Source of the DNA: Trichodesmium erythraeum IMS101
GTDB taxonomy: Bacteria > Cyanobacteriota > Cyanobacteriia > Cyanobacteriales > Microcoleaceae
Length of the DNA stretch: 32,000 nucleotides
Direction of reading: 5' to 3'
Assembly: GCF_000014265.1 (NCBI RefSeq)
Contig: NC_008312.1
Span: 2,490,001 to 2,522,000 of the forward strand
In this document: in pieces, positions 8,789-32,000 of the stretch
How the letters are laid out: each line of letters opens with the position of its first letter
Numbering within the stretch: position 1 is the first letter of the stretch
Made by a program: the position numbers and the translations under genes
The notes under the pieces: generated by a model
What the model was told of the DNA's origin: nothing
What the model saw: the letters and a program-made list of their open reading frames with translations, nothing else
Databases searched by the model: none

Positions 8789-8901
8789 GCAGCCAAAAGG
8801 CTAAAAGAAAAACCTGACTTATCAGAAGGCTATCAATAGATAGACGATATGGTGATACTAGAAAGCAGGGATGTACCCATAGAAAGGGACGCCTAGGAGA
8901 G

Positions 8902-8935
8902 AAGCCGTGTGAGGTGAAAGTCTCACGCACGGTTT
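8902..8935 (+). other. Group II intron domain V (catalytic hairpin)
   Basis: AAGCCGTGT-GAGGT-GAAA-GTCTC-AC-GCACGGTTT. This is a 34-nt hairpin with the AGC triad, a GAAA tetraloop and a 2-nt AC bulge, as in the domain V consensus. Confidence 0.85.
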
Positions 8936-8991
8936 TGAAGACCAACAGGCCTTATAAAGGGTAATCTGGAAATAGGCTTGTTGAGTTTAAC

Positions 8992-12920: not shown

Positions 12921-12994
12921 CGGGATGTAGCGCAGTTTGGTAGCGCGCCTGCTTTGGGAGCAGGATGTCGCAGGTTCAAATCCTGTCATCCCGA
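12921..12994 (+). tRNA. tRNA-Pro (anticodon UGG), no encoded CCA
   Basis: Acceptor stem CGGGATG/CATCCCG. Anticodon stem CCTGC/GCAGG with loop TTTGGGA (anticodon TGG). T-arm GCAGGTTCAAATCCTGT. Length 74 nt. Confidence 0.93.
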
Positions 12995-21453: not shown

Positions 21454-21659
21454 AAACTGGAAATTTTTACTGACAATTATCAGAAGGCTAGCACTATAAC
21501 CTTTGATGAATGTGTTTGGATGAATGGTGAAGATATAATTGTGATTCAATGTCACAATTATCTCACGGGGTGACAAGCTAGTTGAAAGCTATATATAGAA
21601 AGGAATTTGTGTTCGGGAACTAAAGAATATTTCAACAAAAAGAAAACGCTTATTGGACT

Positions 21660-21710
21660 GGGTAGGGGGTGTAGTGCGAGCGCAGAGCGCTCGCACTACA
21701 CCCCCTACCC
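21660..21710. other. Perfect 24-bp GC-rich hairpin (3-nt loop) inside the IS, between IRL and the transposase start
   Basis: GGGTAGGGGGTGTAGTGCGAGCGC-aga-GCGCTCGCACTACACCCCCTACCC. It stands out against very AT-rich surroundings. Confidence 0.9.
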
Positions 21711-21802
21711 ATGGTTGATTATTTATTCATTAAAACATTAAAAAAAACTGTTAAAAATATGATAAAAAAGGGTTAATAATTACAAAAAAAAAAGAAGAAA
21801 AA

Positions 21803-22951
21803 GTGAATATATTAGGCTTTTATCAAGACCATATTAAGCAAAAGTTGAGTCCATCTCAAGTAGTAACATTACAAATATTATTATACTTAATTTCAGTACA
21901 TAAAACTGTACAAATATCAAAGCTAACCAATTATTTTCAGCTACCAATTAAATCAGAAAGTAAGCGAAAACTTATGCGAAAGATTTTTAACCCTAAAGGA
22001 ATTAAGTTTACCTATATTTTGGTTCCCTTTAGTCAAAATAATGGTAAAAAATCTCTTCAGCTTTACCTCAGAGTTAGTGTTGATTTTAGACCGCACTCAG
22101 TGGCAAAATATTAATATTTTAATGATAACTGTAGCTTGGAAAAAGACAGCTTTACCTATATATTGGAAGATTTTATCTCATAAAGGAGCTAGTAATTTAA
22201 CCGAACAAAAATCAGTAATTCGCCCTGTATTAAAATTATTGAAAGTACACAAAATAATTCTCACAGCACCCTAGAATTCCACAGTATTTTCCTGTGCCAT
22301 TGGTTGAAAGAATATAAAAAAAAAGACGTATATTTTGTCTTGAGACAAAAAAAATCAACTATGATAAAACGAGGGAGAAAATATTTTCAACTCTCAGAGT
22401 TAAAAGTAAATATCGGTGAATCCCAACTATTATTGAATCAAAAAATTACCAAAATTTTGAAGGTAGGAACATATAATTTACTTGTATATAAAAGACAGAA
22501 ATATCGTCAAAATTCTGTTTCAGAGAAATGGTATATTCTCTCCAATTTATCATAGTAATGTGGAAAAGTTAAAAAAATATATAGCCAGAGAATGGGCATA
22601 GAAGCCATGTTTAAGGATTATAAAACTGGTGGTTATAATCTAGAATCAGCAAAAGCCAACGAAACTAGACTTAATAATCTAATTTTATTAATAGCTATTT
22701 CATACACAGTTAGTTCATTTAAAGGACAAGAAATTAAAAACAAAGGAGTTCAAGAATATATATCAAGAACTAATGAAAGAGGTAGAAAAGAAAGAATAAA
22801 CAGTAGTTTTTGCTTAGGTTTATCTAGTATTTATTGGGCAATAAATGATGATTTAATGTGGAAATTAGTAGAAAATTTAATGAGCCTTAATCCTCATAAA
22901 TTACTATATTATCGCAGGGGAATAAAAGCGATGAATAAAGTGGTTAATTAG
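21803..22951 (+). pseudogene. IS4-family DDE transposase broken into at least four ORF fragments
   Basis: ORFs 21803..22114, 22041..22274, 22304..22555 and 22592..22951 lie in different frames. A (D)REFHS-like text sits at about 22275. An exact Y-(2)-R-(3)-E-(6)-K signature (YSQRMGIEAMFKDYK) sits at about 22580..22625. Confidence 0.8.
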
Positions 22952-23872
22952 ACTGTAATTTTTGATTAAAAATTAATTAATAAAGTTAAGTTTTTTCATG
23001 ATATTATTCTACCGCACAACTTGAATTATTCCTCAGCCCCTGAAGGCAAATCCCTTTATATATATAGCTTTCAACTGGCTTGTCACCCCGTGAGCACAAT
23101 TATATACAAATATTTGTAGTTTATCTAGTAGAGATTTTGGATAAACTCTAATTATCATTTTGGATATGCTCAAAACACTCAGTTATACTTTACTCCTGGC
23201 AAAATAATCTACAAAGGCTTTGTTCTTTAATAACAAAAGATAATAATTTTCCTGTAGCTAAAAAGCTAAACTAAACTCTCAAGCAAGACTTGTTTCAAAA
23301 CAAACATTTACTGATATTATTACCATGTCAGTTCAAAAAAAAAGCAATAAAAGTTTGCGATCATACTCTTTAGCAACTATATCCGATAATGGTTCCTTAC
23401 ATTTAACTGTGGGAGAATACGACAAACTCCTTGTAGGTGGTATACAATTAAGTAATGGCAAAAATTTCGACCCCGGAAACAGCAAAGATAAAGCTTTTAA
23501 TATTGGGTCTTTAAGTGATAAGTTTCAGTTAGATGAATCTGTAGGTAAGAGCGATCGCCAAGACTTTTACAAATTTACGGTAGAAGAACAGAGGAAAGTA
23601 GAGATTAAACTGATGGGTTTGACGGCTAATGCAGATTTATATTTACTACCCGAAAAAGGTAAAGTCATTGACAAGTCTAAAAATGGCGGTAAGAAGAATG
23701 AAAAAATCACTGCGACTCTTGAGCCTGATACTACTTATTATTTGCAGGTGCAACCGAGAAATAAGACGATCAAAATGCTGATTATCATCTCAGTTTGGAT
23801 ATTAGAGAAGCAACAGATAATCCTATAGTTCACAGTGATTTTCTTGAGAGAGTCGTGGAACTTACCAACCAA

Positions 23873-25007
23873 TAGACATCTCCAAAATAGAAAATAAGGT
23901 AAAATTATCAAAACCATTTATGTATGAAGTCTCCCAAATGAATCCAACTTTAGAATATATTTATAATCATCCAAAAGAAACAAAAAGAATTATTGGCATT
24001 ACTTATGAACAGCTAATAAAATTAATAGCAAAGGCCCAAATAATAGAATCAGAGAAAAAGGAGGCAATCGCCAAAACAGAAAAAAGACTAATTAAAGCAG
24101 GTGGAGTCAGAAAAAAGAATTTAACAAAGGAAGAAGAAATAATGTTAACGTTATTTTATTTACATCAAATACCAACTTTTCAAACATTAGGAATTAACTT
24201 TGGTATAAGTGAATCAAGTGCTAATAATATTTTTCATTACTGGATAGATATTTTCAGAGAATTACTGCCAGCAAGTTTATTAGAAAAAGTAAAAAAAAAA
24301 GAAAATGAATTGGAATGGGTAAAGGAGATAGTAACAGAATTAGAATTAATTGTAGATAGTACAGAACAAAGTAGAGAAAGACCAAGTGAATATAAAGACC
24401 AAGAAAAATATCAAATATGAAAAAAGAAAAATCATACTTTTAAAAATCAAATAATAACGACACCAAAAGGAACAGAAATAGTAGATGTAATAGTAGGAGA
24501 AAAAGGTCCAGTAAGTGATGTAAAAATATTAAGAAAACAACTGGATAAATTTGATAAAAAACAAAAATTTTAAGGAGATAAAGCTGATGAAGGAGTAGAA
24601 AGAACTACTACACCAAAAAAGAAACCAAGAAAAAAAGAAATGTCGCTAGAAATCAAAGAAGAAAATCAAGAAAAAGCCAGAAAGAGAATATTTGTAGAAC
24701 ATATAATAAGATTAATTAAAATATTTAGAATTGCTAGAGAAAGATTCAGATTAAAATATAATAATTATCAAAAAGTAATCTTAACAATATGTGGTTTAGT
24801 GCGACTAAAAATTGGCTCTTTTATATTAGTATAAACCATCAAAAGCTGAGACAAAAATAATAAATTAAAGTACAATAAATATTTGAATTAGTAACACGAA
24901 GTATCTCTGATGCCCATAAAACTGTACAAATTAACTATCTTCATAAGTAGCGATAGCACCACTAAAGATAGTTAGGATAAGCGTTTGAGTATTTTTGGAG
25001 ATGTCTA
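23873..25007 (+). mobile_element. Small IS (about 1.13 kb) with Harbinger/PIF-type (DDE_Tnp_4, IS5-like) transposase, inserted in the PPC-CAP gene
   Basis: Terminal inverted repeats TAGACATCTCCAAAATA (23873..) and TATTTTTGGAGATGTCTA (..25007). The exact ends and TSD are ambiguous (AAT or TA). Confidence 0.7.
23920..24834 (+). pseudogene. DDE_Tnp_4-type transposase with two in-frame nonsense codons
   Basis: A single frame reads ...LIVDSTEQSRERPSEYKDQEKYQI*KKKNHTFKNQIITTPKGTEIVDVIVGEKGPVSDVKIL...KF*GDKADEG...RKRIFVEHIIRLIKIFRIARERFR.... The family pattern is D-x-T-E ... YSGKKK-HT-K-Q ... GD-GY-G ... R-x-VEH. TGA at 24418..24420 and TAA near 24571. Confidence 0.75.
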
Positions 25008-25728
25008 ATAGAATATGGCAGTGCAAGACTTTTATGAACATATTGGATTAGATGGTTCTTTAGGAGGCGATCATATTGAAGCTACAGGATATGACTTTTC
25101 AGCATGGGCAGAAAATATTGCGGTAGGATATCAGACACCAGAAGTAGTGGTAAAACTTGGATGAATAGTAAAGAACATCGTGCTAATATTCTCAATCCCA
25201 ATTTGCAATAAATTGGTGTTAGTTACTATTTCTTGGAGGAAGATACTGGTAGCGTTAACTTCAATTGTTATTGGATACAGGTTTTTGGTATGCCTGATAT
25301 GTAAATATGAGAGAGGTTTGACTTAGTGGGACTTACACAATTTTTAAGCCCAAATATAGTCTAAACTCTCCTTGGGAAGGGCAAATATGTCCCTGTTTTC
25401 AGTTAACTAATCAAAGAAACCCAAAGACATAGCTGTGCGAGCTTTTAAGGCTTCAGTAAATGTGTTCAAAGTTTCTTCGATCACTGTCTTTGTTAGCCTC
25501 CAGTTAATTTATGCAAATGATAAAAGTATAAGCACAAAACATCAAGATCAAATGGAGTAATGAACGCCATTTATCTCTCACTTGAAATTCTTTTAGCTTT
25601 AACCATTATGAGCGCTTTTATGTCAAAAACTTTGACCCAACAACTCTATTGAATAAGTCTTTACTATCCATTTTTTCTGATTGCTTAGAGTGCTTAAACT
25701 CTTATCTCAAAATAGCTTTGATTGCTTC

Positions 25729-26394
25729 TCAGTCCCTGATTTCTGAACCAGTAGAAGAATTATAAGTATAAATCGTAACTTCTTGAGAACGAACTAGCTT
25801 TCCATTAAACATATACCCTGGTCTTACAGTTTCACAGATTAGATCGTCTTTGTCTGGATCCTTCACAACCCGCGTAGCCATAATTTGCTGTTGCTCATAG
25901 TTATAGCTGCCAGTATCTTCTAGAGATTGCACCCCCTCTTTTTCCAAAACTTGCCCCAACTCTTGATATAAGGACTCTAGTAATTCAGGGGTATTTGCAT
26001 TGTCTCCTGTTTTGGCGAGTAGAACTAAATCCCGTAATTTGATTAGCTCTTTCGCCGTTTCGGATAACTCTGGCTCCCGAGCAACTTCTGTTACTGGAGG
26101 AATGATTGTAGATTTTTCTAAAGCGATCTGTTCCGCAATTGCGTTATTCGCATTTGCTTCTACAGTCTCAGTTTGTGCGATCAGAATATCACCGCGATCG
26201 AGCAACCGCTCCAAAAGTAAGTTAGCTGATTTTAACAGGGAAACAGTGTTGGTGTTTCCAAAATTGTTATTTTCTGGCTGCAAGCCGTTCAACTTTCGTG
26301 CATTTGCTTCAGTTTTTATAGCCTCTTCTTTTGCTTGTTGCTGTTGCGCCATCCAGGGGCAGAAAATATTAAATATGGAAAAATCGTTAAGCAT
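25729..26394 (-). CDS. GrpE-like (nucleotide-exchange-factor fold) protein, last gene of the dynamin operon
   Basis: The C-terminal third (LEKEGVQSLEDTGSYNYEQQQIMATRVVKDPDKDDLICETVRPGYMFNGKLVRSQEVTIY) follows the GrpE pattern GV..i...G..fdp..h.a......d....v.....GY..nG+.lR.a.V.V. A coiled-coil-like N-terminal half is present. Start at ATG 26394, preceded by AGGAGG and overlapping the upstream stop (ATGCTTAA). Confidence 0.6.
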   Translation of the reverse strand: MLNDFSIFNIFCPWMAQQQQAKEEAIKTEANARKLNGLQPENNNFGNTNTVSLLKSANLLLERLLDRGDILIAQTETVEANANNAIAEQIALEKSTIIPPVTEVAREPELSETAKELIKLRDLVLLAKTGDNANTPELLESLYQELGQVLEKEGVQSLEDTGSYNYEQQQIMATRVVKDPDKDDLICETVRPGYMFNGKLVRSQEVTIYTYNSSTGSEIRD

Positions 26395-27961
26395 AGGAGT
26401 CCTCCTGTTGTGCAATTTGATAGAGTATTTGTTCGTAGGAATGGGCTATTACAGTAGCTGCCTCAATGGTCTGGCTGTCAGCACTCATATAGTCATTGGC
26501 TCTCTGTCTCCAAGACTGTACTCGTTGTTGGGCGACATGAGTCATCTCGGCATCAGTGGCATTTTCACCAAGCTCAAGTCGTGCTTTTAGGGAGGTTCCG
26601 TTTTCACCGGTCACTGCTTGAAGTTGTCTAACCTCATCCTTGTTAAAACCGAGCTCGCCCTGGTAATAACTGTGTAATACTGCCAACTGCTGAAAGCCTT
26701 GTTCCTCAACCTCCAGCCTTTCAAACTCTCCTGCTATGTCGGCGACCATCTGAAAATCTGCACCCTCTAAACGCTGTTTTTCCATGAAACAAGCTGCTTT
26801 GATTTGTTGCAATGCAACGCTCAACTTAATCAGGAAAGCGCGGTTGCCAAAGTGGGATTTAATCAAGTCTAGTAGTTCTGATGCGCCACTTCGCTGGAAT
26901 AGTTTCCGAGCTAGCAATTCCTTTTCTCTAGTTCCACTGCGGATAAGATTGGCAGCCAACCAGATTCCGTATTGTCCAAGTCGGTCTAGTACCAATTTTC
27001 TCTTATCTGCGGGCGGTATCTCTGGCTCTTTTGGATACTCGCGCTCCCTAAGTCGCGTGGCATTTTTGACCAGACTCCGAAGTCTACTTTCCGGCAGTGC
27101 AGCTAGCTGCATTAGGGTATCAAACTCTTCTGGAGTTAGGGTTTGCGCTCCAAAAGCCAGAAGACCGCATACCGGCAGTGTGGTATAAAGCGCGCCGCGC
27201 AAATGTTCGGACTGCAATCGCTCTGTGATTTCACGACCTTTGAGAATCGGTTCTTCACCGTCCGACCAGTAATCATCTACTTTAGTCAGTACTCCAATTG
27301 CATTAATTGGCGTTGCTTGTCCGAATGCAGCACCTTGAAACTCAGCCATTGTGTTTTGGCTAGATTCAGAGAAGCTTTTAGCGAATAGGTATATTACGGC
27401 ATCAGCATTAGAAGCTTCTTCCTGGGTTGCTTGCGTTAGTTCCTGACCGTGCAATTGCAGGAAGTTTTTGGTGTTTTCTGAATCAGCTTCGTAAGCTGAC
27501 GCCAAACCCGGGGTATCTATTAGGTTAAATTTCTTCAGGATAGGGTTGGGATAAGATAACTCAATGTACTTAATGCTCAGTAAGTAGTTGAAGGAATCGC
27601 TGTTAGCTTCAGCCCGTAGGGTTAGATCTTCCAGTTCTTCAAACGATTTCGGTTCTGGCGGAGAGCCATTTTTGTAATGGACTAGCAGAGATTTGGATTC
27701 ACCATATTTCAGCCAGTTGACGTTGAATGTAGCTTCTACCGTGCCGGTAGCTACTATTTTTTCCCCCAGAAGAGCATTCATCATTGTAGATTTCCCAGCT
27801 TTTATCATGCCAACTATCGCTACTCGCATTGGTAAATCTAACTGCTGGTAACACTGATCAATCTTTCGGTATAGGTTCTGCAACTTGGGGCGATTCATGG
27901 TGCAACCAAGAGCAAACTGAAATACCTCTTCAGCGCGATCGCGTAATGCCCGATTATCCAT
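26387..27961 (-). CDS. Dynamin-like GTPase 2 (BDLP/LeoA-like), soluble, 524 aa
   Basis: G1 VAIVGMIKAGKSTMMNALLG, G3 IDTPGLAS, G4 VLTKVDD, followed by a long helical stalk. Start chosen at ATG 27961, which overlaps the stop of the upstream gene (ATGGATAA). The ORF-track extension to 28105 lies inside the upstream gene. Confidence 0.82.
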   Translation of the reverse strand: MDNRALRDRAEEVFQFALGCTMNRPKLQNLYRKIDQCYQQLDLPMRVAIVGMIKAGKSTMMNALLGEKIVATGTVEATFNVNWLKYGESKSLLVHYKNGSPPEPKSFEELEDLTLRAEANSDSFNYLLSIKYIELSYPNPILKKFNLIDTPGLASAYEADSENTKNFLQLHGQELTQATQEEASNADAVIYLFAKSFSESSQNTMAEFQGAAFGQATPINAIGVLTKVDDYWSDGEEPILKGREITERLQSEHLRGALYTTLPVCGLLAFGAQTLTPEEFDTLMQLAALPESRLRSLVKNATRLREREYPKEPEIPPADKRKLVLDRLGQYGIWLAANLIRSGTREKELLARKLFQRSGASELLDLIKSHFGNRAFLIKLSVALQQIKAACFMEKQRLEGADFQMVADIAGEFERLEVEEQGFQQLAVLHSYYQGELGFNKDEVRQLQAVTGENGTSLKARLELGENATDAEMTHVAQQRVQSWRQRANDYMSADSQTIEAATVIAHSYEQILYQIAQQEDSYA

Positions 27962-30014
27962 CTGCCCAGTCCTCTCCATAATCAGCATTGCTCGGTTCGT
28001 CGATTTGACTTGCTTCCAACACCTGCGAATCCCCATCCGATTTTGGTTGAAAATTTGCCATAGTTTCGGTCTGAACGACAGTTTCCTTTTGGGAAATTGT
28101 GGCATTGGCTAGATTTTCGACGCTGTTGTAGAGTTTGTTGAGTTGCTGCAAAGGAATTGCTAGCTGCTTGAGTTTTTCTTGCTTCTCTCGCTCGGTGAGC
28201 TTGCGAGTTTCCTGAATAGAACGTAACGTGCGATCGCAATTTTGCTTTAACTGTCCGATCTTTTCGCTCAAATCATCTGTCATCGCCCGCTTTAATTGTA
28301 TAACAGTTTTATTCAAAGACTGTTGACAAAGCTCTTGACTTTCTCTGATAAACTGCTGGATGTGCGGGTTGATTTCTCTTTGAGCGGCAGCTGTATCCTG
28401 TTTCTTAACTTGGGATACTCCTTGTACTACTCCAGATGTAAGTCCCGCTATTCCACCAATTGCAGCACCAATTGACGAACCAATAACAGCTCCGGGCCCG
28501 GCTCCCACACCACCAAACAGAAAGCCGATACCTGCACCAACTGCTCCTCCTACCGCACTAGCAAGAGTTCCCCCGGCCGTAGCATTAAACATCCCACTGC
28601 GCGTTACGCTCAGGGTTTTTTCCCACCATCCTGACTTCTTAATCTCTATGCTATCTGTTGATAGTTCAGTTTTTTCCCAGTCTAAAGAGTCAAGATTAGA
28701 GATACCAAGCTCCAATCCACTTGATGTCTCAATTTGGTAATGCAAGCTGGCTGCTTTGCTGCTAACTTGCTTTCCTATGTCAGACATCAGGGTATCAATA
28801 TCCCGCTCGACCAACTTAGCAATCTCCGCTGGTTTCTCTAACAATTTGCTATCTTTCATATAGTCATTTGCCCACCCCTGAACTTTGGTAAAGCCACTGC
28901 GCAATTGAGCGGACAATTCCATGCTGATATCTTCGATACCGCGACTTAACTGCTTTTGCCAGTTGGTGTTGTCATTTTGGAGATCTTGAAAGCGTTGCTT
29001 TTCATTCTGGAACTGGCTTTCCAGCTTATCAATCTCTTCTTTGCTTTGTTGCTGGCAAGTTGACAATTCAGCCTGGATCGGCATTTTCATATCCCTTAAA
29101 GCTGGTCCCAGTTCTCCCAGAGCACGGATCAGCAAAATGTAGCCCTTCTCTTGGGTGAGTAGTTTCCCCAATTCTGACTCTAATGCTATGAAGTTGCTAT
29201 CCTCTAAGTCTTCCTCATCTTCATGCTTTAAGTAGTCAAGGTAGTTGTGGCTAGATACAGGGACGATCGGAATTTCATTGCCAGGACGCTGTAGCACTTG
29301 GGCTAGTTTTTCCCTGTTATTCGCCACGATAGTTTGGTAGTCTGCTTTAGAATCTATTTTGGTAACAACGAAGATAACGTTGGAAATAACATTAGGACAG
29401 CGATCGACAATAAATTTCAGAAATTTGAGTTCGTCTTCTGACAGAGGGTTTTTGACATCGCTAACAAAAAGGATGGCATCGGCTTCGGGGATGAAACTGT
29501 AAGTAATTCCCGTATGTTGGGTATTGAGTCCCCCCACGCCAGGCGTATCCACCAATACTAAACCATCCTTCAGTTTTTGGTTAGGCGATTCTATAACCAG
29601 CATCCGAGCTTGACGCTTGTTTCCTTTATTGAATTTCTCGTTAGCATAATTGCCTATTTCCTGGCGTTGAATTTTCTCTTTCTTTTCTTTACCTGGTTTT
29701 CCCAGGATAACCGTAATTTGTTCCCTTTCTCCGTAAGCGATCGTGGATACAATACCGGTGGCAATATCAGCATCTACCGGGAATAAGTCGTCATTGGCTT
29801 CCTTGAGAAGTGCATTAATCAAGCTAGATTTTCCTTCCTTGAACTCACCGCAGACTACAACCAGCAACTTACCCTCAAGTAGACGTTTTTGAGCTTCGCC
29901 CAGACGCCGCTCTATATCTCTGTATTTATAGGTTTTGGCAAAGGATATTGCTGATTGCAACAGCTTTAGGGTCTGCTGCTTCTGTTCCTGATATCGTGCT
30001 TGGTAGGTAGGCAT
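27954..30014 (-). CDS. Dynamin-like GTPase 1 (BDLP/LeoBC-like) with glycine-zipper hydrophobic membrane segment, 686 aa
   Basis: G1 VVVCGEFKEGKSSLINALL, G3 VDTPGVGG, G4 VVTKIDS, helical stalk. GGTLASAVGGAVGAGIGFLFGGVGAGPGAVIGSSIGAAIGGIAGLTSGVV is followed by a coiled coil and an acidic tail. RBS GAGGAAAG precedes ATG 30014. Confidence 0.85.
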   Translation of the reverse strand: MPTYQARYQEQKQQTLKLLQSAISFAKTYKYRDIERRLGEAQKRLLEGKLLVVVCGEFKEGKSSLINALLKEANDDLFPVDADIATGIVSTIAYGEREQITVILGKPGKEKKEKIQRQEIGNYANEKFNKGNKRQARMLVIESPNQKLKDGLVLVDTPGVGGLNTQHTGITYSFIPEADAILFVSDVKNPLSEDELKFLKFIVDRCPNVISNVIFVVTKIDSKADYQTIVANNREKLAQVLQRPGNEIPIVPVSSHNYLDYLKHEDEEDLEDSNFIALESELGKLLTQEKGYILLIRALGELGPALRDMKMPIQAELSTCQQQSKEEIDKLESQFQNEKQRFQDLQNDNTNWQKQLSRGIEDISMELSAQLRSGFTKVQGWANDYMKDSKLLEKPAEIAKLVERDIDTLMSDIGKQVSSKAASLHYQIETSSGLELGISNLDSLDWEKTELSTDSIEIKKSGWWEKTLSVTRSGMFNATAGGTLASAVGGAVGAGIGFLFGGVGAGPGAVIGSSIGAAIGGIAGLTSGVVQGVSQVKKQDTAAAQREINPHIQQFIRESQELCQQSLNKTVIQLKRAMTDDLSEKIGQLKQNCDRTLRSIQETRKLTEREKQEKLKQLAIPLQQLNKLYNSVENLANATISQKETVVQTETMANFQPKSDGDSQVLEASQIDEPSNADYGEDWADG

Positions 30015-30034
30015 ACTTTCCTCGCAAAAATTAA

Positions 30035-30571
30035 TTAGTTTTTGGTTAAGAAGTGGTCAAAAAACTTTGAGCCTAGAACGCGATAATACGGCTCCAGGGA
30101 AGGTTCCATCAAAGTCCGCAAAAGCTGGCTAAATCCTTCTTTCCATTGTGGAGAAAAAGATTTCCCTTGAGCCAGTTTCTCAAGCATTTCCTCATACATA
30201 GCTAACAAGCGCCTGCGCTTTTCTTGATATTCCCCCACTGTCATCTGGGCTACTTCTGCATGAGGAAAAGTACCAACCTCCTTTTCCCAATTTGCTTCCG
30301 GCCAAGGATTGCTATAGCGGAAGTTGAGGTATTCGACTATCATTTGGTTAGACCAATCCCAGGTTATTTTGGCAAACGGTGGAAATAAAGCCGTCTGAAC
30401 TTTGCTCTGGGTATGAGCACCAAAAAAAGGTAAGGTGACATAGACTTTTCCACCTTTGCGTTGGGGAATTGGCCATCCGCTTTGCGCCTCCATTGGTACG
30501 AGCTGGCGAAAAAGTGGAGTTTTGCGGATGTCTTCCATCAAATTTTCAATTTTCTGCTTTGTTTGTTCCAT
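30035..30571 (-). CDS. Hypothetical protein (178 aa), no recognisable motif; operon member
   Basis: Clean ORF with ATG at 30571. It lies 18 nt after the upstream gene and 20 nt before the dynamin gene, with the same strand and composition. Trp/Pro-rich (WPIPQ, WDWSNQ, NPWPEANWEKE). Confidence 0.65.
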   Translation of the reverse strand: MEQTKQKIENLMEDIRKTPLFRQLVPMEAQSGWPIPQRKGGKVYVTLPFFGAHTQSKVQTALFPPFAKITWDWSNQMIVEYLNFRYSNPWPEANWEKEVGTFPHAEVAQMTVGEYQEKRRRLLAMYEEMLEKLAQGKSFSPQWKEGFSQLLRTLMEPSLEPYYRVLGSKFFDHFLTKN

Positions 30572-30589
30572 GATTTTCGTGCTTAGGTT

Positions 30590-31852
30590 TTAGACTCCTC
30601 CCAATATGCCAAATAAATAATAACCAACGCTAATAATATCGGTACCGCCGACGGCTTTTATCGTTCCACCCATATTATGAACCTTATGACAACTATCAAC
30701 CCATCCAACCTGAACTCCTTTGGCATCGTACACATTTCCATCGGCACCTAACTTTCCAACGTAATATCCTTGAGTGTTATAAAATTCACGGGCTTTGACA
30801 CTTCCCACCGAGCTACCATTTATATAGCAACTACCATCAGGATAGACATTAAAATAGTCGTTACAGCCCAAGATTAAATCATGGGAATCGTGTTGTTGCA
30901 GGTCTCCAGAAAAGATTAAATCTTGTTGGTGAGTATTCTGGTTGTCATGTACGTTAGTAGCAACTAGATAGTTACCGCCCGCGGCCCAAGCCTTCTCAAA
31001 TTGCTCCAAGGGAACCATCATCCCGCCTCCATCAGGAGAGCCGGGATCGTTGAGAACAACTTTTGGATGCAGGGGGTCTGACTCTGGGTATACAATCCCA
31101 GTAACTTCGACTGCATGGTCGGCTTGCTGGCCGGGAATACCTGAGTACTCATTTAAGGTTTGATTTAAGTTTGCCTCTTTCTCTGACATCCAGATTTCTT
31201 CAGAGTTTACTCCTACAATTACCTTTTCTCCACGAGCTAATTTGTCACTCAATTCTAGAGTAGTTCCACCAAAATGACGCTCTACGGGGATGCCGTGTTC
31301 TTCTAAGAGATGGCCAACATGGTATGCTGGTGTTCCGCTACCTGGGTGATAACATCCGTCAGCTATAGCTTCTCTACAGAGATCGTTTTCTGAGAAGTGC
31401 TTTCCCGTGAGGTTTTCCAGAACGAATTGTTGGGAGACAATGGCACAATCATCGGCGTAGCGTTGTTGATGCCAGCATTCCATGTCGTGACCAGGATCTC
31501 CAATCACTAAACCATCGGGGTGTTCTGGGTCAAAGTGTTGGTGAGCCGAATATTCTGACTGGTCTTCGGTGTCTCCTAATAAAGGGGAATAATCGCCGCT
31601 ATCTTCTGCGGGTTGAAAGTGCCAGTCGTCTAGCTGACTGCTAGAATCGTCTAAGAAACTGTAATAATCAGTTTCGTAGGCATCGAAAGTATGCAAATTC
31701 GAGTCATGCTCGTCGTTACCCAAATCATGCTCGGTGTCGGGGGTATCGGAGTCGTAATTATGACCGAGGTCATCAAGGTTCGAGTCAAGAACTTCAATGG
31801 CCGCCTCTTCTAAGCTGTCCGTAACTAGCGAATTGTTATCAAATATGTTCAA
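30590..31852 (-). CDS. Papain-fold cysteine peptidase, C39-like domain, with acidic/His-rich N-terminal region and hydrophobic C-terminal tail (420 aa)
   Basis: Q-x5-C context HQQRYADDCAIVSQQFVLENLTG (Cys codon 31445..31447). His context QADHAVEVTGIV. Asp context VVLNDPGSP. The order Gln/Cys/His/Asp matches C39-type peptidases. TTG start at 31852 with AAGGAGG 8 nt upstream. C-terminus ...IISVGYYLFGILGGV. Confidence 0.65.
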   Translation of the reverse strand: MNIFDNNSLVTDSLEEAAIEVLDSNLDDLGHNYDSDTPDTEHDLGNDEHDSNLHTFDAYETDYYSFLDDSSSQLDDWHFQPAEDSGDYSPLLGDTEDQSEYSAHQHFDPEHPDGLVIGDPGHDMECWHQQRYADDCAIVSQQFVLENLTGKHFSENDLCREAIADGCYHPGSGTPAYHVGHLLEEHGIPVERHFGGTTLELSDKLARGEKVIVGVNSEEIWMSEKEANLNQTLNEYSGIPGQQADHAVEVTGIVYPESDPLHPKVVLNDPGSPDGGGMMVPLEQFEKAWAAGGNYLVATNVHDNQNTHQQDLIFSGDLQQHDSHDLILGCNDYFNVYPDGSCYINGSSVGSVKAREFYNTQGYYVGKLGADGNVYDAKGVQVGWVDSCHKVHNMGGTIKAVGGTDIISVGYYLFGILGGV

Positions 31853-31886
31853 TTAACCATCCTCCTTGCTATGTAAATAGACGATC

Positions 31887-32000
31887 TTATGACAACAGTT
31901 TTTTGAAAAAGTTAGTCACTCCCGATAATGCTTTTGCTGCTGTTAAGGATTGACGAGCATCTTCGTGGCTAGGATCGAGGCGGATTGCTTCTTCATATTC
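31887..32000 (-). CDS. 3' end of a TPR-repeat protein gene (partial, continues beyond the window)
   Basis: The minus-strand frame reads EYEEAIRLDPSHEDARQSLTAAKALSGVTNFFKKLLS*. The ..A..yeeAirldP.h..A pattern is a TPR repeat end. The stop at 31887..31889 lies 34 nt upstream of the peptidase gene start. Confidence 0.6.
   Translation of the reverse strand, partial: EYEEAIRLDPSHEDARQSLTAAKALSGVTNFFKKLLS

Follow-up and report, generated by a model that had tools for sequence, protein, structure and literature searches.

A conserved six-component gene module around a bacterial dynamin pair in Trichodesmium erythraeum and at least five phyla

The window analysed here is a 32,000-nucleotide (nt) stretch of the genome of Trichodesmium erythraeum IMS101 (NC_008312.1, positions 2,490,001 to 2,522,000), and coordinates below are window positions unless a contig is named. 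Near its end lie five closely packed minus-strand genes, among them two adjacent genes for dynamin-like proteins (DLPs), called DLP1 and DLP2. The five were found to form the downstream portion of a conserved module of six components, the sixth being an Hsp70-like ATPase fused to a repeat domain. The core of the module is DLP1, DLP2 and the Hsp70-like ATPase; a predicted cysteine peptidase with a small partner protein, G2, and a GrpE-like protein are frequent modules beside it. In class, the cluster can be described as a GTPase-centred, chaperone-coupled system on a bacterial dynamin pair, with G2 as a component that has neither a family assignment nor a solved relative.

The genes of the cluster, in order of transcription, are as follows (NBD, nucleotide-binding domain; aa, amino acids).

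31887..32000, minus strand: 3' end of the Hsp70-NBD::TPR gene, comprising the last 37 codons plus stop, with the remainder beyond the window
30590..31852, minus strand: gene 1, predicted C39-like peptidase, 420 aa; TTG start with AAGGAGG 7 nt upstream
30035..30571, minus strand: gene 2, G2 (Tery_1655), 178 aa; no family match
27954..30014, minus strand: gene 3, DLP1 (Tery_1654, "Dynamin"), 686 aa; Dynamin_N and DUF6861
26387..27961, minus strand: gene 4, DLP2 (Tery_1653, "GTP-binding protein, HSR1-related"), 524 aa; Dynamin_N
25729..26394, minus strand: gene 5, divergent GrpE-domain protein, 221 aa; Pfam GrpE

All five open reading frames (ORFs) between 31852 and 25729 are intact, and Tery_1655, Tery_1654 and Tery_1653 are the exact protein sequences of genes 2 to 4. 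Gaps of 18 nt and 20 nt separate gene 1 from G2 and G2 from DLP1, and are followed by two 8-nt ATGNNTAA start/stop overlaps, which read ATGGATAA where the DLP1 stop meets the DLP2 start (27954..27961) and ATGCTTAA where the DLP2 stop meets the gene 5 start (26387..26394). The stop of the Hsp70-TPR gene at 31887 lies 34 nt ahead of gene 1. This arrangement is confirmed as it had been drawn in the original prediction, which was made from the sequence of the stretch alone. Consensus scans of 25300-32000 for promoters and terminators gave counts equal to the shuffled expectation, so the status of the cluster as an operon rests on spacing and conservation. Comparison with a relative that is 88-90% identical revealed purifying selection on all five genes, with ratios of nonsynonymous to synonymous substitution rates (dN/dS) of 0.14-0.40.

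Two scans with different seeds were employed to follow the cluster across bacteria. The G2-seeded scan, which was pattern-limited, covered one genome for each of 185,579 species and returned 20 loci; removal of near-duplicates and addition of GrpE-seeded loci gave a non-redundant set, also of 20 loci. The independent DLP2-seeded scan was run on metagenomes and gave 45 non-redundant groups, of which 16 are non-redundant loci with adequate flanks. In the G2-seeded scan the cluster was found in Cyanobacteria (Phormidium, Microcystis, Dolichospermum, Acaryochloris), Actinobacteria (Streptomyces, Kitasatospora, Actinomadura, Pseudonocardiales), Acidobacteria (Blastocatellia), Chloroflexi (Sphaerobacteraceae) and Gammaproteobacteria (tubeworm endosymbionts), that is, in at least five phyla. 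Both DLPs are present in all 20 non-redundant loci; an Hsp70-like gene and G2 occur in 19 each, the peptidase occurs in 17 and GrpE in 10. The 16 DLP2-seeded loci all contain DLP1 and an Hsp70-like gene; G2 and the peptidase are each found in 11 of them and GrpE in nine. DLP1 and DLP2 are adjacent in every locus of both sets (20/20 and 16/16). Co-conservation beyond close relatives, on which the proposal of a five-gene unit depended, is therefore seen from two independent seeds.

Since the gene set recurs across loci, mostly with its order and its overlapping junctions, the arrangement is far beyond chance. In actinobacteria the order is permuted to Hsp70-WD40, DLP1, peptidase, G2 and DLP2, and the ORF junctions abut or overlap even so. 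A permuted order with abutting junctions argues for function and not for inherited synteny.

Judged from profile and motif searches, DLP1 and DLP2 are genuine members of the dynamin family. Pfam Dynamin_N matched DLP1 with an E-value of 2.4e-25 (90 bits) and DLP2 with 6e-19 (69 bits), against a gathering score of 27, and the G1, G3 and G4 motifs are present in both (GEFKEGKS, DTPG and TKID in DLP1; GMIKAGKS, DTPG and TKVD in DLP2). The tandem dynamin-like GTPases of the original prediction are borne out by these matches, as is the glycine-zipper membrane segment that it had placed in DLP1. This hydrophobic segment (about residues 479-540, 31% Gly) matches DUF6861 with an E-value of 9e-10 and contains the KD19 hydropathy maximum of DLP1, 1.61 at residue 487; matches of DLP1 to PHROGs are confined to the glycine-rich segment (about residues 467-650), and the C-terminal tail is acidic. 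Among solved structures, DLP1 matched mycobacterial IniA (6J72) at 5e-41, Nostoc BDLP (2J68) at 4e-17 and LeoA (4AUR) at 9e-5, while the closest solved relative of DLP2 is Campylobacter DLP2 (5OWV_C, 2e-12). These data suggest that DLP1 is an IniA-like DLP with a glycine-zipper membrane segment and DLP2 a second, soluble DLP.

The pair had at first been likened to LeoA and LeoBC, and the cluster could in principle be a canonical Eleos (LeoA plus LeoBC) antiphage pair beside unrelated neighbours. Eleos, formerly called 'Dynamins', is likewise a two-DLP operon whose P-loops are required for defence (Millman et al., 2022), the (dynamin) system has been reported from cyanobacteria and actinobacteria, and the PADLOC models for LeoA (5e-36) and LeoBC (7e-19) both match DLP1. 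DLP2, however, matches the Leo models over only part of its G domain (residues 143-237 and 143-207, about 60-95 residues), the NCBIfam LeoA/HP0731 subfamily model scored 53.6 and 18.5 bits where the cut-off is 325, and the match of DLP1 to the LeoA structure is weak beside that to IniA. Nor are the neighbours unrelated: an Hsp70-like gene is present in 16 of the 16 DLP2-seeded loci, G2 occurs fused to DLPs, and the cluster holds four conserved components that Eleos does not have. No defence-island context was seen when PADLOC was run on 86 flanking ORFs of 11 loci, a small sample: among the 25 families hit most often, of 113 matched in all, none was found in more than three ORFs, those being generic protein-kinase models, and single hits may lie among the other families. 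On the model scores and the neighbours, a plain Eleos locus is very improbable, and the initial likening to LeoA and LeoBC is not upheld.

Closer parallels are found in other paired-DLP operons. IniA-IniC of M. smegmatis and M. tuberculosis, Nostoc BDLP1/2 and Campylobacter DLP1/2 share with the present pair adjacent, translationally coupled genes, one of which encodes a membrane-inserting segment. They differ in that IniB is absent here, and that in the papers seen no Hsp70-NBD::repeat protein, GrpE, C39-like peptidase or G2 is mentioned for them. DLP1 itself has been catalogued before, as Tery_1654, in the supplement of a survey of cyanobacterial bacterial dynamin-like proteins (BDLPs) (Jilly et al., 2018; PMC5827413). 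In passages of that survey, Tery_1654 is placed in an 'HSR1 clade' together with an Anabaena 90 plasmid gene and Microcystis genes, and the downstream 'HSR1-related' gene corresponds to DLP2. The survey covers cyanobacteria only and treats the downstream GTPase as a non-dynamin regulator; the same passages report no link of the HSR1 clade to a peptidase, G2 or Hsp70-TPR, and the word 'GrpE' is absent from its text. The survey also has a 'chaperone clade' of BDLPs, and notes DnaK-domain neighbours for a clade other than the HSR1 clade.

The gene ending just upstream of the peptidase gene had been described as that of a TPR protein by which the unit might extend beyond the window. The extension holds, but the product is not a plain TPR protein. 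On contigs of close relatives it was seen to be an Hsp70 NBD fused to a long TPR array, and the translation at the window end, terminating in EYEEAIRLDPSHEDARQSLTAAKALSGVTNFFKKLLS and the stop, is the C-terminus of the Hsp70-TPR ORF in the sister-lineage contig L005. In the intact orthologue on contig L008, from the 88-90% identical relative, Pfam HSP70 is matched over positions 2-372 of 599 and TPRs follow. Across loci the match ends at about position 376 of 599 every time, and there is no substrate-binding domain. The catalytic motifs DFGT... and DLGGGTFD are visible in the Hsp70-TPR ORF, and we take them to be counterparts of those in the DnaK NBD. The domain that follows the NBD is, depending on the lineage, a TPR array, WD40, Beta_helix/NosD (right-handed beta-helix) or WG_beta_rep, and some single loci contain several NBD paralogues. 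Between close relatives the TPR part evolves eight times faster than the NBD (dN 0.38 vs 0.047). In L008 (3297-6107) the protein ends in a 2Fe-2S ferredoxin (Fer2) domain, which replaces the last TPRs of Trichodesmium.

Gene 5 was matched by Pfam GrpE (PF01025) with 31.6 bits against a gathering score of 25.8, over residues 106-208 and profile positions 56-163 of 165, so that the GrpE pattern noted earlier in its C-terminus is recovered. Its homologues carry the NCBI name 'nucleotide exchange factor GrpE', and the housekeeping GrpE equivalogs of NCBIfam were not reached (best 24 bits, cut-offs of at least 186). By these scores, gene 5 is a divergent GrpE paralogue. An Hsp70-like NBD gene is present in all 10 G2-seeded loci with GrpE and in all nine DLP2-seeded loci with GrpE, and gene 5 is predicted to be the nucleotide-exchange factor for the Hsp70-like ATPase of the cluster. 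An exchange-factor-like role towards the GTPases had been proposed for it and is not supported; the upstream Hsp70-TPR protein would be its natural partner.

In T. erythraeum the Hsp70-TPR gene is a pseudogene. On L111, a contig 100% identical to window positions 26095-32000, the gene (337-2965) is split into ORFs of 124, 150 and 594 aa, and both L111 and L110 (680-3308) carry a TAG nonsense codon (..VPATHSD-stop-KK..) and a 1-bp frameshift. In the sister lineage (L005-L007) the nonsense codon is not the same one but lies at a distance of two codons (..TH-stop-DYKK..), and L008 is intact at this site (..THQDYKK..). Because this gene is a pseudogene, the window copy of the module is probably functionally impaired. 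Codon differences between the two Trichodesmium lineages were 12 nonsynonymous and 3 synonymous in GrpE, 5 and 14 in DLP2, and none in DLP1, a pattern that, on small numbers, fits GrpE having lost its partner while the DLPs stay constrained. If GrpE serves the Hsp70 of the cluster, a relaxed GrpE and a broken Hsp70-TPR would be expected together, as is seen in Trichodesmium. DLP1 shows zero nucleotide differences over 2061 nt (27954-30014 vs L005:6381-8441) next to 19 differing codons in DLP2, and this zero divergence may reflect a recent recombination or sweep.

The product of gene 1 begins with an acidic, disordered region (residues 1-105, with 30 D+E and 0 K+R), followed by its catalytic core (about 105-300) and, towards the C-terminus, a beta-rich region (about 333-393). 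No Pfam peptidase family matched the window protein at E<=1, the sole signal being Bflower_2 with an E-value of 5e-4, which does not reach the gathering score; the protein was matched by neither PADLOC nor NCBIfam. Its alignment profile found no match among PDB sequences, and a fold search was therefore used. In an AlphaFold2 (AF2) model the core has a predicted local distance difference test score (pLDDT) above 90, and a Foldseek search of the PDB returned the C39-like peptidase 3ERV as top match (E 3e-6, probability 1.0), with Alr0975, PeiR, cathepsins, staphopain and the C39 domains of PCAT among further fold matches. An alignment of 35 homologues shows no variation at Q130, C136, H246 and D269, PF13529 (Peptidase_C39_2) is found on many homologues, including the Anabaena orthologue, and one is named 'C39 family peptidase' by PGAP. 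The papain-fold peptidase with an intact Gln/Cys/His/Asp set that had been read from the letters is thus supported by fold and invariance, and gene 1 is, on this model and alignment, a cytoplasmic papain-fold (clan CA) C39-like cysteine peptidase. A Bflower assignment of the C-terminal region was considered and is unproven, since the score is sub-threshold and model confidence there only moderate. The N-terminal extension varies, being acidic and disordered here, an unassigned domain elsewhere, and in two lineages (L056, 5270-6895, and P0082) a zf-HC2 anti-sigma zinc-finger motif. The C-terminal extension is variable as well.

C39 peptidases classically cleave double-glycine leaders, and one explanation of the cluster would be constitutive membrane remodelling, for example at the thylakoid, at the septum or in vesicle release, in which the Hsp70-like protein sorts cargo and the peptidase processes the double-glycine leader of an exported product. 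The structures of PCAT and ComA among the fold matches of the peptidase are in line with it, passages in Jilly et al. (PMC5827413) propose a role in protein sorting for DnaK-like neighbours of BDLPs while membranes are remodelled, and passages of another study connect LeoABC with a vesicle-associated release of toxin (PMC4159319). The annotated loci showed neither an ABC transporter nor a leader-peptide gene, be it among conserved neighbours or the flank families seen most often, and the peptidase has no signal peptide, its core being nearest to stand-alone C39-like and phytochelatin-synthase-like enzymes. A thylakoid-specific role is at odds with the occurrence of the cluster in non-photosynthetic actinobacteria, acidobacteria and symbionts. 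Most genomes are also without the cluster, with 20 loci among 185,579 species in the pattern-limited scan. Constitutive remodelling is for these reasons improbable.

The 178-aa product of gene 2 had been noted as a protein without a recognisable motif, and G2 indeed matched no family in Pfam, NCBIfam, PADLOC or PHROGs. Its family comprises 406 representative clusters at E<=1e-3, with identities across phyla of 43-88% and 18 invariant residues. G2 is modelled by AF2 with a pLDDT of 92, and a Foldseek search of this model against the PDB found no relative (best E 0.1). Six diverged representatives, with mutual identity of 24-55%, have G2 fused N-terminally to Dynamin_N GTPases; other fusions join it once to a peptidase fragment, once to a second G2 in tandem, and once to an N-terminal domain that a peptidase also carries. 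That domain, unassigned and of about 230 aa (..IYGRTY..DFR..), was observed on G2 in L044 (5050-6939) and on a C39-like peptidase in P0035, which suggests domain shuffling among components of the system. The fusions provide Rosetta-stone evidence that G2 would work physically with both the DLP and the peptidase, and it is predicted to link the peptidase to the dynamin-like GTPases as an adaptor.

A papain-fold peptidase gene followed by a small conserved gene is also the layout of staphopain-staphostatin pairs, and staphopain is among the fold matches of gene 1; the fold of G2, by comparison, is not detectably similar to staphostatin or to any PDB entry. Weak matches of G2 to a 'cystatin-fold design' (TM 0.22/0.42, E 0.5) were not accepted as evidence for a protease inhibitor. 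Because G2 is fused to dynamin GTPases and present in one locus without a peptidase, it is not simply an inhibitor. Searches with tblastn gave no match to G2 in phage genomes and one match in plasmids. A structure search of BFVD gave a single viral match, the uncharacterised metagenomic protein A0A8S5LSF7 from Siphoviridae sp. ctMAv2 (E 3.9e-6, TM 0.67/0.74, 13% identity), which could be a phage-encoded mimic of G2 or contamination.

Among described systems, the DO-GTPase/GAP1-N2 conflict systems (Kaur, Burroughs, Iyer and Aravind, eLife 2020; PMC7159879) resemble the cluster in several respects. Like it, they contain a paralogous pair of TRAFAC GTPases, one of them membrane-associated, coupled to Hsp70 (sometimes NBD-only), GrpE and TPR proteins, and are enriched in filamentous or multicellular bacteria; some neighbourhoods of both include kinase, PP2C and vWA genes. 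Unlike them, the present GTPases belong to Dynamin_N and come without a GAP1 or FNIII component, and the described systems are without the C39-like peptidase and G2. The main text of that paper never mentions dynamin. The possibility that the two DLPs are themselves DO-GTPases was rejected, as no DO-GTPase1/2 or GAP1 Pfam match was obtained on the five proteins at E<=1.

DO-GTPases were found only as an extra insert in the loci of Anabaena 90 and Dolichospermum. On plasmid pANA01 of Anabaena sp. 90 (L028, NC_019428.1, 4601-16262) the gene order is HTH (helix-turn-helix), Hsp70-NBD, hyp412, DO-GTPase, DO-GTPase, hyp479, C39 peptidase, G2, DLP and DLP, where hyp479 is a paralogue of hyp412 and a large CHAT-domain protein adjoins the cluster. 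The DO-GTPase pair is thereby nested between the Hsp70-NBD and peptidase genes, and the same arrangement is found in L013. The Scytonema cluster (L001) is flanked by kinase, PP2C, vWA/TerY_C and FHA genes and by two more Hsp70-NBD::repeat genes. In Aerosakkonema, about 7 kb downstream of the cluster (L003:17490-19783), lies a set of Prok-E2_D, Prok-JAB and ThiF genes for E1/E2/JAB ubiquitin-like conjugation.

A working model of the system can be proposed from these parts, in which the cluster would be an NTP-gated module at the membrane that serves in stress or conflict. The DLP1/DLP2 heterodimer would be a membrane-acting machine, and the Hsp70-NBD::repeat protein an ATP-gated switch for recognition or assembly, whose repeats bind a specific partner or signal and which GrpE would reset through nucleotide exchange. 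G2 would dock the cysteine peptidase onto the DLP and so couple activation to a proteolytic step. The proteolytic output might be the processing of a system component, or a transcriptional output in lineages with zf-HC2 on the peptidase or an extracytoplasmic function (ECF) sigma gene upstream. Such a gene lies directly upstream of the Hsp70-WD40 gene in five actinobacterial loci (e.g. L020:4112-4693).

As to its role, we tentatively favour, at somewhat less than even confidence, an inducible response to insult of the cytoplasmic membrane by a conflict or defence-type system ('GTPase-centric, chaperone-thresholded' in the sense of Aravind) over constitutive membrane housekeeping. A conflict or defence role is favoured because of the variable, sensor-like repeats, the NBD paralogues, the variable accessory domains on the peptidase, the patchy and partly plasmid-borne distribution, the linkage to DO-GTPases and CHAT, and published precedents. 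Hsp70 and GrpE modules have such precedents in GTPase-centred conflict systems (PMC7159879; PMC11090510), and DLP pairs defend against phage (Millman et al., 2022, preprint). A bolder extension, possible but doubtful in our judgement, would make the cluster a multi-phylum machine for immune or stress signalling. It would comprise an Hsp70 sensor lacking the substrate-binding domain and bearing fast-evolving repeats, a threshold set by GrpE, a DLP pair executing at the membrane, and G2 tethering a caspase-like 'trigger' peptidase, with anti-sigma cleavage and ECF sigma release in some lineages; G2 would represent a new fold among dynamin adaptors, and one structural mimic of it would be encoded by a phage.

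Several observations weigh against a conflict role. The nearest solved relative of DLP1, IniA, is an envelope-stress protein, and linkage to an ECF sigma gene is classically an envelope-stress signature. The housekeeping synteny around the Trichodesmium locus is stable and is kept in the sister lineage without insertions, the flanks of 11 related loci are otherwise mostly housekeeping, and the PADLOC result on these flanks given above points the same way. The parts of the model are also unevenly distributed. The peptidase and G2 are missing from about one third of the DLP2-seeded loci, which makes them an add-on and not core, and G2 stands without a detected peptidase in the Actinomadura locus (L025). 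GrpE is absent from actinobacterial and gammaproteobacterial loci, and neither the core genes nor the flank families found most often include a J-domain protein; for these two reasons a canonical Hsp70 cycle is not assured.

Much of this would suit an operon for the repair of envelope or membrane stress, in which an IniA/IniC-like pair seals or remodels the cytoplasmic or thylakoid membrane, the Hsp70-like protein and GrpE assemble or disassemble the DLP polymer, the peptidase provides turnover and an ECF sigma factor controls the operon in actinobacteria, with no conflict role. Besides the IniA match at 5e-41, the five upstream ECF sigma genes, the zf-HC2 fusions on some peptidases and the housekeeping flanks without evident enrichment of defence genes, this explanation can draw on passages of published work that present DynA and IniA as membrane-integrity proteins, and on those in which Jilly et al. 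(PMC5827413) propose membrane-dynamics roles for cyanobacterial BDLPs. It accords less well with a repeat domain on the Hsp70 NBD that is variable between lineages and diverges fast between close relatives, with several NBD paralogues in single loci, and with variable accessory domains on the peptidase. The patchy phyletic distribution with one copy on a plasmid, the physical linkage to a DO-GTPase module and a CHAT protease, and the loss of the Hsp70 component in two Trichodesmium lineages likewise count against it. These features typify accessory or conflict systems more than core stress machinery, and a repair operon is considered the less likely reading, though a serious rival.

The surroundings of the operon in Trichodesmium, with two dead insertion sequence (IS) elements and pseudogenes, had been said to look like an accessory or defence islet. 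This view is not sustained. The window is 99.2% identical to sister Trichodesmium contigs across the operon, and relative to them it contains two insertions, at 21561-23095 and about 23875-25010. The first holds three short ORFs without a Pfam match. The second contains a degenerate IS with an HTH_Tnp_4 ORF (23920-24420) and a DDE_Tnp_4 fragment (24640-24834), at a place where the sister has a CAP-domain gene. The IS fragments are thus insertions specific to the strain, in a block of housekeeping synteny that the sister contigs conserve without them, and on this comparison a mobile or defence island marked by the adjacent fragments was rejected. The other neighbours are housekeeping genes, namely Sua5, a methyltransferase, Tic22, GNAT, a histidine kinase and a beta-eliminating lyase, with RibD upstream.

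Three further features of the window were observed. Segment 25010-25299 is repeated at 87% identity in a sister contig. At 8899-8991, on the plus strand, Rfam matches to group II intron domain V/VI (RF00029, 54 bits; RF04357, 58 bits) with adjoining short ORFs probably mark a group II intron or its remnant. A tRNA gene lies at 12921-12994 on the plus strand (Rfam RF00005, 71 bits).

In the searchable literature no description of the cluster was found, nor any paper mentioning Tery_1652-1657, and its proposal as an undescribed system stands, the DLP1 gene alone having been catalogued before. Hsp70-type ATPases are known to have been recruited to GTPase-centred systems, such as the DO-GTPase systems and CoCoNuTs, and the cluster extends this theme to the dynamin family. 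G2 adds a family of about 400 representative clusters that is confidently modelled and for which no structural relative has been solved. In Trichodesmium, the ongoing decay of one component in an otherwise conserved module is documented. A further hint is that dynamin-type membrane machines may be linked to regulated proteolysis or to ECF sigma signalling. Bacterial DLPs are widespread, and the conserved set of partners described here offers testable handles on how these proteins are controlled.

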